Counted from the stretch's first letter, positions 12,526 through 26,217 are shown. The stretch: DNA of 64,000 nucleotides from an uncultured bacterium (GCA_963717435.1 OY970332.1:96001-160000); one strand, 5' to 3'. Notes: generated by a model not told the origin, from the sequence alone. Translations and numbers: made by a program.

Positions 12526-12625
12526 AAATTTATAAAAACAATAAATTTTGTATAAACTAAAAAAACAAATTATAGATAAATTTAACTATGAATTAATTTT
12601 TTTAGGGAAAAAATAATGTATAAAA

Positions 12626-12651
12626 CCCTACTGCGCCAAGGCTTCGAAGGG
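12626..12651 (+). repeat. Palindromic element, type B module (upstream of murC)
   Basis: ccct a ctgcgccaaggcttcg aaggg, matching the comF inner module cttcgccaaggctacg. Confidence 0.75.
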
Positions 12652-12679
12652 CTAGTTTATTTGAGGGAGAAATCTTTTT

Positions 12680-14080
12680 ATGTATAAGAAGGGTCACGTG
12701 CATTTCGTGGGTATTGGCGGCATAGGCATGTCCGGTATTGCCAAGATACTTAAATATCAGGGATATACTATTTCCGGATGCGATAATGACCTTGAACAAA
12801 AAAGCGTAGAAGATCTGCTAAAAATTGGCTGCTCAGTTTACAAGGGCAACAATACAGAAAATTGCAAAAATAATTCTGTCGATATACTAGTTTATTCTTC
12901 CGCTATAAAATCTGAAAATCCAGAAATAAGATGGGCTCAAGACAGGGGCATCCCAACGATCCCAAGAGCTTTAATGCTCGCAGAATTAATGCGAACAAAA
13001 TACAGTATCGCAATTACAGGATCGCATGGCAAAACCACAACAACTTCTATAATTTCCCATATATTAATTGAAGCGCATAAAGATCCCACTGTGATTATCG
13101 GGGGACATTTGCATAGTATTTCTGCAAACGCGCGTCTTGGCAATGGCGACTTTTTGGTGGCAGAAGCTGACGAGAGTGACAGATCTTTTTTGCGACTGTA
13201 CCCAACACTTGCAGTTGTAACGAACATAGATTTGGAACATCTTGAAACGTATAAAGATCTTGCCGACATTAAAACAACTTTTAAGAATTTTTTAGAAAAT
13301 ATTCCGTTTTATGGCAAAGCAATAATCTGCACAGATGATCCAAACGTGAGATCGATTTTACCACTAACAACTGTTAAGACTTTAAAATATGGCCTAGAAT
13401 CGCACGGTGATATAAAACCAGAAATTTATGCAACAGATATAATATTATCACCAGATAGTTCAGAATTTAATATCTGGAGCAACCAAACAAATTTGGGGCG
13501 CGTGACTCTTAATATGCCCGGCAAGCATAATATTTTAAACTCACTGGCAGCAACTGCTATATGTCTTGATGTTGGTGTAAATTTTGAAACAGTATCAAAA
13601 GCGCTTTCAGATTTTAAAGGCGTTGATCGTAGATTTACATTTAAGGGCAATTACAAAAACGCAGAATTTTTTGACGACTACGGGCATCACCCTACGGAGA
13701 TTTTTCACACGTTATTAGTTGCTCGCAAAAGATCTAAGGGCAAATTAATAGTAGTTTTCCAGCCGCATAGATACATAAGAACCCACAGACTCTGGCAGGA
13801 TTTTATTAATACTTTCGCAAATAGCGCTGTAGACAAACTTATTATTACAGATATATACTCTGCTGGAGAAGCCCCGATAGATGGCATAACTGGAGAAAAT
13901 TTGGCGCGCGAGATTAATAATAACCAAACTAAATTTAAAACTTATTATGCAGGTTTTAATGCTGATTTTAATAATATAAAAAATATTTTAGAATCAGAAA
14001 TTAGCGAAAACGACTTGGTGCTAACTCTTGGTGCCGGAAAAGTTAACAAGCTGTTTTCTGTGATTACTGGGGCAAAATAA
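12680..14080 (+). CDS. murC: UDP-N-acetylmuramate--L-alanine ligase
   Basis: HFVGIGGIGMSG, GSHGKTTT, EADESD, DDYGHHPTE, FQPHRY. Confidence 0.97.
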   Translation: MYKKGHVHFVGIGGIGMSGIAKILKYQGYTISGCDNDLEQKSVEDLLKIGCSVYKGNNTENCKNNSVDILVYSSAIKSENPEIRWAQDRGIPTIPRALMLAELMRTKYSIAITGSHGKTTTTSIISHILIEAHKDPTVIIGGHLHSISANARLGNGDFLVAEADESDRSFLRLYPTLAVVTNIDLEHLETYKDLADIKTTFKNFLENIPFYGKAIICTDDPNVRSILPLTTVKTLKYGLESHGDIKPEIYATDIILSPDSSEFNIWSNQTNLGRVTLNMPGKHNILNSLAATAICLDVGVNFETVSKALSDFKGVDRRFTFKGNYKNAEFFDDYGHHPTEIFHTLLVARKRSKGKLIVVFQPHRYIRTHRLWQDFINTFANSAVDKLIITDIYSAGEAPIDGITGENLAREINNNQTKFKTYYAGFNADFNNIKNILESEISENDLVLTLGAGKVNKLFSVITGAK

Positions 14081-14120
14081 ATTACAGAAAAATTGTATGT
14101 CGCAAACCCACGGAGCTTAC

Positions 14121-15020
14121 ATGAAAAAAATTCTGCTTTATATTTTCATGTCCGGGCTAATTCCATGCGATACAAAATCCATGGACTGTCTTATAACACC
14201 GCCTGAAGATGAAACGCCTGATCTTGTAGAGTCCAGACTTTTTTGCATAAATTCCGCGCTAATTATTGCGCAAATTATAATTATTGTAGTTCTAAAAAAA
14301 AGAAACTATTTCTTTGGGAAGAAAATACTCCCATCAACATTAAATATCGATGGGGCGGTTTATCGCTTAAAACCTATGGGCGCAATTGCCATTATTTCGG
14401 CAACAAGTACGTTAACGTGCCTATATTCGTTATTCATGTGCAGTTCTTTTCCACCAGCTCTAAACAAAGAGGAGCAAATAGTTTGCTCTGAATCAGAATA
14501 CAGAAGAGTGGTAGCAATAGTCTTAGCTTCAATATGCAGTATAATTCATACTACAAATTTGTCCCATAACAATAGCTTAAAAAAATTGAGAGAAAAATTT
14601 ATGGGTAGCCCAATAGAACTAAAATCGAAAATTGCATTTTGTTCAGAATTTTTGGAGAACTTAAAATGCGCAATTTGTTTTGATATACCAAATATTGACG
14701 CAGTCAATCCCTGTGATCATGAAGAACATGTTTTCTGCAGAGCATGTCTAACTGATTGGTTTAATAACATGCATAAACTTCAAAAAGAACATAGTCCTGA
14801 TGATTATTACAATTATGCACACGAACGAAAATATAGTTGTATAAGTTGCACCAGAGAAATAAATGACGATAACACAAAGATAGAAATTTCACGTCCCACT
14901 GCAAAATTATACCCAACAGCAAAAGATATTTTGCAACAACTTGCTGGATGCCATGGGATATTAATTATAATTTATGGGGCGATAATTTATATCGCCCTCA
15001 TAAAAACACTTCAAGTTTAA
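14121..15020 (+). CDS. Membrane protein with eukaryotic-like RING finger
   Basis: CAIC..PCDHEEHVFCRACL..W..CISC; signal peptide and 3-4 hydrophobic segments. Confidence 0.75.
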   Translation: MKKILLYIFMSGLIPCDTKSMDCLITPPEDETPDLVESRLFCINSALIIAQIIIIVVLKKRNYFFGKKILPSTLNIDGAVYRLKPMGAIAIISATSTLTCLYSLFMCSSFPPALNKEEQIVCSESEYRRVVAIVLASICSIIHTTNLSHNNSLKKLREKFMGSPIELKSKIAFCSEFLENLKCAICFDIPNIDAVNPCDHEEHVFCRACLTDWFNNMHKLQKEHSPDDYYNYAHERKYSCISCTREINDDNTKIEISRPTAKLYPTAKDILQQLAGCHGILIIIYGAIIYIALIKTLQV

Positions 15021-15023
15021 AAA

Positions 15024-24449: not shown

Positions 24450-24532
24450 AATAGAAAAATTCTTAAACAAGTTTTATAATATAAATATAAAAAATTTAGA
24501 GTTCGTGATGAAAAGATTATAACGTAAAACTT

Positions 24533-25519
24533 ATGGGAAAAAAAATGCTTCACGAAAATTTATTAAAAGCAATAGGCGACACGCCACTAGTTAAAGTTAA
24601 TTTTGAAACACCAGCAAATATTTATGCAAAATTAGAATATTTAAATCCGGGCGGAAGTGTAAAGGACAGATCTGCTTTATTTATGATCGAAGAAGCAGAA
24701 CAAAACGGCACTCTAAAACCGGGCGGGACCATTATAGATGCGTCTTCTGGAAATCAAGGTATCGCGGTTGCCATGATCGGGGCGATTAAGGGCTATAAAG
24801 TTATAATTACTGTTTCAGAAAAAATCAGTAAAGAAAAAATGGATACCTTAAGAGCATATGGCGCCCAAATTGTAATTTGTCCAGCAACAGATTTGGTAAC
24901 AGATTATGATAGTTATCACAGCCAAGCGGTTAGAATACAGCAAAGCACTCCTAACTCTTTTATGCCAAACCAGTACTATAATTTATCAAACGCAAAAGCG
25001 CATTATACTTTGCTCGGGCCTGAGATTTGGAGACAAACAAATGGCAAAATTACGCACTTTTTTGCAGCTGCAGGAACAGGCGGAACAGTAAGTGGCGCAG
25101 GAAAATATTTAAAAGAACAAAACCCAAATATCAAAGTTCTTGCTGTTGATTCTATTAATTCTTTTAGATCAACAAATGGCAACCCAAAGCCATATAAGTT
25201 AGAGGGCATAGGCGTAGACTTCGATTCTGCAGTTTTGAACAAATCTATTATTGACGAATTCTTGCCGGTTGACGATGACAGTTCTATCGATATGCTAAAA
25301 AACTTGGCATGTAAGCATGGGTTACTTGTCGGCCCAAGCAGCGGCGCGGTTGCAAGAGCTGTAAATCAGTATGCAAAAACCATGGCTCCCGGTGATTTAG
25401 GGGTTATGATTTTTGGCGACTCTGGCCGTGCATATTTAACAAAAAATTTCTATGCGACTGAAAGTAATGCTATCCCAAGTTATGTTGCTAAGCCTAAATA
25501 TGTAGAGAAAGAAATTTAA
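24533..25519 (+). CDS. cysK: PLP-dependent cysteine synthase / cystathionine beta-synthase family
   Basis: IGDTPLV, KLEYLNPGGSVKDR, SSGNQG, GTGGT, EGIG, GPSSG. Confidence 0.85.
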   Translation: MGKKMLHENLLKAIGDTPLVKVNFETPANIYAKLEYLNPGGSVKDRSALFMIEEAEQNGTLKPGGTIIDASSGNQGIAVAMIGAIKGYKVIITVSEKISKEKMDTLRAYGAQIVICPATDLVTDYDSYHSQAVRIQQSTPNSFMPNQYYNLSNAKAHYTLLGPEIWRQTNGKITHFFAAAGTGGTVSGAGKYLKEQNPNIKVLAVDSINSFRSTNGNPKPYKLEGIGVDFDSAVLNKSIIDEFLPVDDDSSIDMLKNLACKHGLLVGPSSGAVARAVNQYAKTMAPGDLGVMIFGDSGRAYLTKNFYATESNAIPSYVAKPKYVEKEI

Positions 25520-25581
25520 ATAAATATAGTTCGAGCGGGGCTTAAAAAATAAACGTAAAAATAAAACAGGAGAGTAAGTTT

Positions 25582-26106
25582 ATGAATCCAAAAATAGTTA
25601 TTCTTGTTGTGGCCGGAAAAGATTTCCAACCGGTAGAATACCACGATACATTAAAAGCTTTAAAAGAAGACGGAGTAAAAGTTTTAACGGCAAGTAATGC
25701 ACGTGACACGGCAGTATCGTCTAAGGGCGATCCAGTTAATGTCGATATTACTATAGATAAAATTACCCCAGACATGTATGACGGAATTTACTTAATTGGC
25801 GGGCCAGGAGCGCTTGAGCATTTGGATAATCCCAATATGTATTTTGTTTTGGAAGAAGCAAAAAAACATAATAAATCTTACGGCGCAATCTGCATATCGC
25901 CAAGAATTTTGGCAAAAGCAAGAGTTTTAGAAAATCATAAAGCTACTGGCTGGAACGAAGATAATAAAATCGAAGAAGTTTTCAAAACTTATAATGTAAC
26001 TTATTTAAAACAGCCAGTAGTTTCTAATGGCAGAGTTATTACAGCCGATGGCCCAAGAGCTGCATTAAGTTTCGGCCACGAAATTGCTAATACTATAAAA
26101 AAGTAG
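25582..26106 (+). CDS. DJ-1/PfpI family protein
   Basis: FQPVE, YDGIYLIGGPG, GAICISP, ITADGP. Confidence 0.9.
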   Translation: MNPKIVILVVAGKDFQPVEYHDTLKALKEDGVKVLTASNARDTAVSSKGDPVNVDITIDKITPDMYDGIYLIGGPGALEHLDNPNMYFVLEEAKKHNKSYGAICISPRILAKARVLENHKATGWNEDNKIEEVFKTYNVTYLKQPVVSNGRVITADGPRAALSFGHEIANTIKK

Positions 26107-26115
26107 TTTTTTTGG

Positions 26116-26174
26116 CGTGAGCCCTGCGAAGCTTGCCGAGCCCGTAGGCCCGGATAAGCGTAGCACGGGCCACG
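26116..26174 (-). repeat. Palindromic element, type B with extra nested module (downstream of pfpI)
   Basis: cgtg agccc tg cgaagctt[gccgagcccgtaggcccggat]aagcgtag ca cgggc cacg. Confidence 0.75.
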
Positions 26175-26217
26175 AAATTGCAAGAGTGCTTAAAAAATAA
26201 CTTAAAGGATTTTTTAC

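Follow-up and report, generated by a model that had tools for sequence, protein, structure and literature searches.

Our analysis showed that at the end of pfpI, in a small AT-rich bacterial genome carrying GC-rich hairpin repeats, a hairpin separates two versions of the same gene end, and that both tails are genuine coding ends which exist as real protein ends. At the protein level, and at pfpI only, the two copies derive from different lineages. Because its working and leftover ends thus represent two natural variants, the hairpin together with the substitute end was most likely imported. The same order of elements, outward from the gene body a core, the working end, a hairpin, the core again and a leftover end, is found at three places in the window, i.e., the whole 64,000-nt stretch of DNA analysed (Table 1): at the start of murC (S1), at the end of an S9 peptidase gene (S2) and at the end of pfpI (S3). 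We tentatively read these sites as recombination scars, at which a hairpin and a substitute gene end were installed from another lineage's DNA, a reading to which we would give not quite an even chance.

Table 1. Features of the three duplicated gene ends, numbered from the first letter of the window.
Site	Feature	Positions	Strand	Basis or remark
S1	Displaced copy: ribosome-binding-like stretch and ATGTATAAAA (12616-12625)	12594-12625	+	abuts hairpin
S1	Hairpin, 27 nt, degenerate member of the CGCCAAGGCTTCG hairpin family	12626-12652		BLAST to genome copies; weak fold
S1	Start of murC (ATG at 12680) with its working ribosome-binding stretch	12653-12689	+	ORF 12680-14080
S2	Displaced S9 peptidase end, GRYEK-stop	16324-16341	-	touches insert
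S2	Insert, 51 nt: repeated hairpin core and small extra hairpin	16342-16392		repeat catalogue
S2	Working end of S9 peptidase gene (16393-18306), GRYEQ-stop	16393-16410	-	ORF
S3	Working pfpI end: 14-nt core and tail ANTIKK-stop	26074-26106	+	P0003 ends ANTLKK
S3	Spacer TTTTTTTGGCGTGA and 50-nt hairpin element (26121-26170)	26107-26170		genome copy; fold
S3	Displaced pfpI end: same 14-nt core and tail ARVLKK-stop	26168-26200	+	residues as in P0002 end

At S3, the core GGCCACGAAATTGC lies at 26074-26087 and again at 26168-26181, identical at 14 of 14 positions. In a uniform flank test, in which each site was scored against 5000 random places, only 2 of the 5000 were as good. The 19-nt tails following the two cores match at only 9 of 19 bases, and both encode, in register, six residues and a stop codon. 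A stop at the same place combined with a BLOSUM score of at least 16 had a probability of 2.7e-4 among 309,194 non-coding 19-mers. P0002, the closest metagenomic pfpI homologue (86% identity), ends in the leftover tail ARVLKK, and the working tail ANTIKK resembles ANTLKK, the end of the next homologue, P0003 (80%); more distant homologues end in ARILKK or ARIIKK. In a tree computed without the last six residues, the host protein (P0001) pairs with P0002, at a support of 85/87 that is only moderate. From this pairing it follows that either the working tail is discordant with the gene body or P0002 represents the empty allele. The S3 hairpin element is 86% identical over 50 nt to positions 349197-349246 of the genome, beside the tmRNA gene. 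It has a folding energy of -25.6 kcal/mol and is the only one of the three to fold clearly better than its shuffles (z -3.3, as against 0.76 at S1 and -0.01 at S2). The end of the element and the displaced gene end overlap by 3 nt, with GGC as microhomology at the joint.

At S2, the working and displaced ends of the S9 peptidase gene flank the insert directly and match at 16 of 18 bases; 22 of the 5000 random places scored as well. The insert has no stop in the peptidase frame, its core (16340-16373) is 94% identical to 647770-647803 of the genome, and the microhomology at the joint is GG. GGRYEK is the S9 peptidase end in a Dependentiae relative and in 3 of the 120 homologues listed, and among the same 120 GRYEQ followed by a stop was found only here. 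That both copies were once coding ends, as the preliminary description held, is thus borne out by the P0002- and P0003-type tails of pfpI and, for the leftover S9 end, by the form seen in relatives. Extension of the repeat past the stop codons gave p 0.51 at S2 and p 0.07 at S3.

At S1, next to a gene whose product is a Mur ligase according to its look-alikes in the protein atlas, the displaced ATGTATAAAA matches the working ATGTATAAGA (starting at 12680) at 9 of 10 positions; in a relative, murC starts with ATGTATAAAAAGGGA. The stretches upstream of the ATG are also similar between the two copies (block 12653-12672; shuffle p 0.0075), and the hairpin matches other copies in the genome over 16-20 nt at 95-100% (BLAST). 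Under the uniform flank test, 954 of 5000 random places scored as well, hence S1 is not significant on its own. The layout described earlier for three sites therefore holds at S2 and S3, and is present and plausible at S1. Since S1 was found only with hindsight, we drew no inference from the fact that the three sites fall within 14 kb of each other. The bias toward synonymous differences claimed before depends on few changes: one synonymous change at S1, one synonymous and one Q/K change at S2, and at S3 three synonymous or stop changes and three replaced residues. The S9 peptidase site differs by two bases and the murC site by one, which drift or sequencing error could explain; a two-allele test is possible at pfpI only, which speaks against import.

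The preliminary description had gone further and suggested a hairpin-driven system for replacing gene ends and adding loops. As a genome-wide system of gene-end replacement it finds no support, since we saw the layout at no more than 3-4 gene ends out of about 1100 and at about 4% of the hairpin loci. The 143 repeated GC-rich hairpin loci show an excess of flank repeats with scores of 12 or more (8 observed, 1.84 expected) and of those with scores of 14 or more (4 observed, 0.5 expected). At scores of at least 9 we counted 18 for 17.6 expected, and intermediate scores showed no excess. Of the eight repeats with scores of 12 or more, about four can be put down to the sequence of the elements themselves or to chance matches in AT-rich DNA. 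Long flank duplication occurs at about 5-6 of the 143 loci, in excess over chance but rare. A protein-level scan of 1097 gene ends ranked S3 first (score 39) and S2 second (score 24); all gene ends taken together showed no general excess of duplicated ends. The expected enrichment appears at hairpin flanks and is missing over gene ends in general. Two further candidates of the protein-level scan were dropped, one being a separate small downstream ORF, which we take to be HicA-like, and the other a weak match.

Several further searches bear on what the hairpins are. An Rfam search of the window found no family, copies of the spacers elsewhere in the genome were just short AT-rich chance matches, and hairpin energy used as a classifier did not separate GC islands from shuffles. 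Bearing on the suggested addition of loops, some 40 hairpin loci fall within open frames of 100 residues or more, two of them in a heparinase-like gene. Beyond hairpins next to the 36 tRNA and tmRNA genes, we found no duplicated tRNA 3' ends except neighbouring tRNA genes.

In comparison with relatives, the S9 leftover has the form found in them, and the pfpI leftover has the P0002 tail. The genome collection searched contained no relative of the same genus, the best relatives being 54-74% identical, and metagenome loci for pfpI gave only relatives at 38-44%. In the closest genome (G009), the orthologous sites carry no hairpin. S2 and S3 fall where gene order stops matching this genome; such gaps are frequent (3 in 23 kb), so the coincidence is weak evidence. 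Next to the leftover ends are genes that few or none of the relatives have. The formamidase gene is present in 1 of 40, and in the genome G021 no S9 peptidase adjoins it; for the orphan gene that follows the leftover pfpI end, no homologue was found at E 1e-30, and the 1.85-kb stretch following that end is absent from G009. The hairpin motifs recur among 40 distant relatives, one in 7 of them and the S3 motif in 9, a distribution that fits movement between lineages.

Import has to be weighed against a local origin of the duplicates. Hairpins might insert by a mechanism that sometimes duplicates a 13-35 nt target, by template switching in replication or repair or through a transposase, with drift following later; insertions at gene ends would then survive only if the duplicate contains a stop or start codon. 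We regard this as unlikely overall, though it has cases to its credit. Direct repeats flank inserts on both sides, and the groES-groEL hairpin, which has a second copy elsewhere in the genome at 100% identity and a 16-nt flank repeat containing one change, looks like local insertion with duplication, not import. At the MetRS end, a 21-nt repeat runs 12 nt past the stop, the leftover copy having lost its stop; the two differences within this repeat resemble homopolymer errors. All the duplicated stretches are short (13-47 nt), which would be expected from an insertion mechanism and not from random illegitimate joints, and this is an observation against import. Both pfpI tails, however, match natural variants, and simple target duplication with drift therefore does not fit this site. 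Drift would require 10 of the 19 bases in the selected pfpI copy to change and 14 neighbouring ones to be spared, the unselected copy to keep the exact tail of the closest homologue, and the selected one to converge on that of another. For pfpI, the earlier proposal of an incoming allele joined at the hairpin is accordingly a better fit. Furthermore, 6 of 7 near-identical pairs of element copies have no flank repeat on either copy, so long repeats are not a routine by-product of insertion, and neither the missing excess at intermediate scores nor the absence of transposases of the four families searched favours duplication. A MITE with a DDE transposase finds no support, as there is no fixed-length target duplication and the repeats, present at about 5-6 of the 143 loci, vary in length from 13 to about 33 nt; of possible parent enzymes, the rve, DDE_Tnp_1 and IS110 families (PF00665, PF01609, PF01548) had 0 matches each in the genome. 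Chance resemblance in AT-rich DNA would be compatible with S1 taken alone, and is refuted for S2 and S3 by their flank scores, the S3 tail and their ranks among gene ends; as an account of all sites it is barely conceivable.

An artefact of assembly or polishing, by which a noisy long-read metagenome merged two strains with and without hairpin into one consensus, we hold to be improbable. The consensus is error-prone and has many frameshifts, at least six of them in groEL, whose residues are nonetheless conserved; completeness is 88.8%. In three soil runs, only identical contigs of 150-240 nt from the same organism were found, and no independent read or contig from these runs bridges a site. 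Indel errors, however, do not produce duplicated layouts of 18-94 nt, the same architecture recurs at about 5-6 places with three different hairpin families, and merging would still require two real alleles in the sample. Much less probable is the remnant of a site-specific integration in the 14-nt core, from which an integrase-borne element with a substitute gene end was later reduced by deletion to the hairpin. Integration into a gene 3' end is classically recognised by an identical core with diverged homologous ends after it, and DNA absent from G009 does follow the leftover pfpI end. Against this, the two ends lie just 94 nt apart with neither integrase nor element body between them, and the extra genes are not enclosed by the pair. 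Tyrosine recombinase matches number just two, at 967 kb and 1063 kb; at murC it is the 5' end that is affected, and three different hairpin families are involved. The same very low probability applies to an HUH single-strand transposase (RAYT or IS200-like) that moves hairpins and captures flanks. Hairpin elements usually insert without target duplication, which would suit such an enzyme; yet Y1_Tnp (PF01797), which matched in 6 of 14 control genomes, had 0 matches in this one, and the HUH-like transfer suggested earlier thus finds no support.

If the sites are recombination scars, a recombination event would set a GC-rich hairpin beside a gene end, with the second copy of the end keeping the gene whole. 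One side might pair homologously inside the gene, and resolution of the other could take place either in the short core or where the hairpin begins or ends. At pfpI, the hairpin with its attached substitute end (about 94 nt) would most likely come from another lineage's copy of the gene. Such a process may be homology-anchored illegitimate recombination, or else homing-like gene conversion of a small cassette that brings a gene end with it. A gene would go on working only after events that regenerate its start or stop codon, and this would be why the layout is seen at gene ends. The direction of transfer, the joining mechanism and any role of GIY-YIG nucleases we infer. ComEC and DprA domains are present in the genome, both being common in bacteria. 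GIY-YIG matches number five: three intact small genes (79-93 residues), one short broken copy and one match within a frame of 433 residues. Of the small genes, one has inverted hairpin copies on both sides, two are located downstream of a tRNA gene with its trailer hairpin, and one comes after a hairpin of the trailer type. The four small nuclease genes beside hairpin repeats or tRNA trailers are hence candidate partners; near S1, S2 and S3 we found no nuclease gene. A bolder and distinctly doubtful extension is that the GC-rich hairpins of reduced, AT-rich genomes are the moving part of enzyme-less cassettes, which would carry a substitute start or stop region of the target gene, home from lineage to lineage by gene conversion, swap gene ends and drag neighbouring accessory genes along, the cuts perhaps being made by small GIY-YIG enzymes.

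Should the import reading hold, tiny hairpin repeats would mark, and perhaps carry, gene-end replacement and gene acquisition between uncultured intracellular lineages. It would also explain harmless hairpins at the very ends of essential genes and provide a signature open to testing, in which allelic ends come after an identical core and for which other reduced genomes can be screened. We know of no enzyme for the spread of such hairpin repeats, and the part of the literature available to us had nothing on elements of this kind in Dependentiae, nor on illegitimate recombination linked to hairpins.

Several known systems share features with these sites. Like the Rickettsia palindromic elements, the repeats are short and palindromic, occur in a reduced AT-rich intracellular genome, may in many cases lie inside ORFs and have no known transposase; to our knowledge, gene-end duplicates with allelic tails have not been described for those elements. 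REP and REPIN sequences moved by RAYT are likewise hairpin repeats that are mostly intergenic, nested and clustered, and six of the seven near-identical pairs here resemble REP/RAYT or IS200/IS605-derived hairpins in inserting without target duplication, although this genome is without a Y1 HUH gene. With e14 or phage 21 in icd the sites share the identical core, the diverged coding-like substitute end and the displaced original end; unlike there, no integrase or element body separates the ends, and the scale is tiny. Homology-facilitated illegitimate recombination, as it occurs in transformable bacteria, also has a homology anchor in the gene, 2-3 nt of microhomology at the other end and foreign or accessory DNA adjoining the joint. 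That process is known from experiments; here, every joint sits at a hairpin and no more than tens of bases away from the anchor. In fungal mitochondria, the insert at Allomyces atp6 is reportedly a mobile endonuclease ORF that duplicates or replaces a gene terminus. As with such mobile ORFs and GC clusters, the insert would supply a substitute for the gene terminus that originates in another lineage, the resident one persists as a remnant, and GC-rich hairpins sit in an AT-rich genome. The inserts described here differ in being 51-94 nt long, without an ORF and in a bacterial host, and any nuclease would have to act in trans, the GIY-YIG link being one of neighbourhood elsewhere in the genome only. 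If the cassette extension were true, these hairpins would be a bacterial counterpart of the mitochondrial mobile ORFs, shrunk to less than 100 bases.

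Around the start of murC (S1) and the ends of the S9 peptidase gene (S2) and pfpI (S3), the order outward from the gene body was the same: core, working end of the functional gene, hairpin, core, and a second, leftover end. At S2, 18-nt copies with two differences directly border a 51-nt insert, and the flank score was reached at 22 of 5000 matched random places. At S3, an identical 14-nt core is followed by tails alike at 9 of 19 bases, the core score being reached by 2 of 5000 nulls. S1 shows a 9/10 match plus a similar ribosome-binding stretch; its score was reached by 954 of 5000 nulls, and S1 therefore counts by analogy only. 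No two of the three hairpins are of the same family. Part of the preliminary description, in which palindromes abut a second, diverged copy of the gene terminus, hence stands: the layout is present at all three sites, but S1 is not significant alone and the layout is rare.

The pfpI site seems to hold the gene-end versions of two lineages side by side. Close PfpI homologues were found in metagenomes. The C-terminus of P0002 (86% identity to PfpI), GHEIARVLKK, is the exact leftover tail of S3, and that of P0003 (80%), GHEIANTLKK, is one residue off the working tail ANTIKK. P0004 ends in AGLLKK, and remoter homologues in ARILKK or ARIIKK. In a tree excluding the last six residues, PfpI of this genome (P0001) groups with P0002 with moderate support (85/87). 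The two tails also resemble each other as peptides with the stop in register (P 2.7e-4 versus non-coding 19-mers). The proposal that both copies were once coding alleles is thus supported at pfpI. The S9 peptidase ends are consistent with two alleles, if weakly: a Dependentiae relative and 3 of 120 listed homologues have the leftover form GRYEK*, and among those listed the working end GRYEQ* occurs only in this genome.

We favour recombination that would have delivered the hairpin together with a substitute gene end. One side of the incoming DNA would pair inside the gene; resolution of the other would take place within the short core or at the border of the hairpin. Overlaps of 2-3 nt occur at the hairpin borders of S2 and S3. 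The cassette of end, hairpin and core might spread between alleles through gene conversion, because its core, present twice, offers homology to either flank of an empty site; this would also explain the ANT-type tail shared with P0003. The gene order match to G009, the closest of 40 relatives compared (74% identity for the C-terminal half of the S9 peptidase, 54% for PfpI), ends at S2 and S3. The S2 leftover end adjoins a formamidase gene found in one of the 40 relatives, and that of S3 an orphan plus a GNAT gene. Gaps in gene order versus G009 are frequent, and the coincidence is therefore only suggestive. Homologues of the window proteins carry the source-given name Candidatus Dependentiae.

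Duplication followed by drift fits pfpI poorly. The non-functional leftover still encodes the tail of the closest relative, P0002, and was therefore displaced recently; drift could then hardly have brought the working tail to its P0003-like state by changing 10 of 19 bases while the 14 adjacent core bases stayed identical. Elsewhere, local insertion with duplication is what the case between groES and groEL looks like, where the hairpin is matched at 100% identity by a twin element elsewhere in this genome. This counts against import, as do the uniformly short duplicated lengths, the moderate support for grouping P0001 with P0002, and an allele comparison that is possible at pfpI only, on protein sequences. 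The duplicated ends are improbable as an artefact of polishing mixed strains, and even such an artefact would require two real alleles. The assembly itself is noisy, with groEL carrying at least six frameshifts giving at least four open frames despite well conserved residues, probably assembly indel errors. No read spanning the S1-S3 junctions was found.

Across all 1097 gene ends, downstream copies showed no excess. At the 143 repeated hairpin loci of our catalogue (21 rows, a paralogous gene family at 1,057-1,063 kb, were left out), flank repeats scoring at least 12 numbered 8 (1.84 expected) and those scoring at least 14 numbered 4 (0.5 expected); about four of the eight reflect either sequence of the elements themselves or AT-rich matches by chance. 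A protein-level scan of the 1097 ends ranked S3 first (39) and S2 second (24). A hairpin between two gene-end copies is a real but rare layout, and given the missing excess and the few unique-flank cases, the proposed genome-wide system for replacing gene ends is not supported.

Coordinates of the sites and related features (the genome is one contig of 1,198,203 bases, 34.6% G+C; the window is its bases 96001-160000)
Feature	Window	Genome (G000:C1)	Detail
S1, murC start	12594-12689		
Formamidase/acetamidase gene and neighbour	14097-16259		neighbour protein with weak RING-finger-like match, below Pfam cut-off
S2, S9 peptidase end	16324-16410		minus strand; unique-flank case
S2 insert plus repeat	16342-16410		69 nt, in frame, stop-free
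S3, pfpI end	26074-26200		unique-flank case, detected with longer flanks
S3 stretch with hairpin and leftover tail	26097-26200		hairpin open in +1 frame, in register with leftover tail
GTAGCTTGCCRAGCC..GGATAAGCGTAG motif	26130-26163		about 36 nt; loci L044-L063
Composite of several GC-rich hairpin modules	58739-58922		185 nt, largest in window
MetRS end			unique-flank case, 21 nt
Copy between groES and groEL			unique-flank case, 16 nt
Inside glycosyltransferase-like frame			unique-flank case, 18 nt, 3 changes
Unique hairpin		1,143,649	unique-flank case, 13 nt
groEL		176400-178120	outside window
Heparinase II/III-like gene		815459-817537	outside window; two hairpin repeats within its open frame
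tRNA/tmRNA trailer hairpins (examples)		200170-200203; 406981-407013; 701028 region	outside window
Small GIY-YIG genes		1066021-1066469; 1023036-1023275; 413544-413792; 200267-200425	3 intact, 1 broken

Short, nested GC-rich hairpin repeats are abundant in this genome. One 16-mer motif has 70 copies here, and 7 of 40 relatives carry it 1-5 times; for a second motif, often adjoining tRNA genes, the figures are 8 copies here and 1-5 in 9 of the 40. About 40 hairpin loci lie within long open frames, and many others 3-50 nt 3' of stop codons. Six of seven near-identical copy pairs lack a flank repeat; ordinary hairpin insertion is therefore clean. At S3, shortening of the A6 run by one A is predicted from sequence to yield a protein carrying an insertion of 31 residues and ending ARVLKK*.

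The GTAGCTTGCCRAGCC..GGATAAGCGTAG motif is near-invariant across genomes of different families in the order, with variable outer stems. Of 20 fetched regions, about 7 have it near a tRNA gene and about 4 directly against the tRNA 3' end; Rfam gave no match in the window. A hairpin (often TTCATTTC...GAAATGAA) also directly follows about 17 of 36 tRNA and tmRNA genes and is itself followed by a conserved TGGC(A/G)GGCCAG-like motif; this arrangement may be a shared trailer or processing signal.

As to the machinery, the genome yielded no transposase of the Y1 HUH, IS110, rve or DDE_Tnp_1 type, and the lack of the Y1 HUH type leaves the suggested HUH-like strand transfer unsupported. ComEC and DprA domains are present. 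GIY-YIG matches number five. Three are intact small genes (79-93 residues), a fourth is a short broken copy, and the fifth sits within a 433-residue frame. Of the small genes, one follows a trailer-type hairpin with no called tRNA adjoining, two have a tRNA gene plus its trailer hairpin upstream, and one is flanked by copies, in inverted orientation, of the commonest hairpin family. ComEC/DprA and the small GIY-YIG genes are candidate helpers of the recombination.
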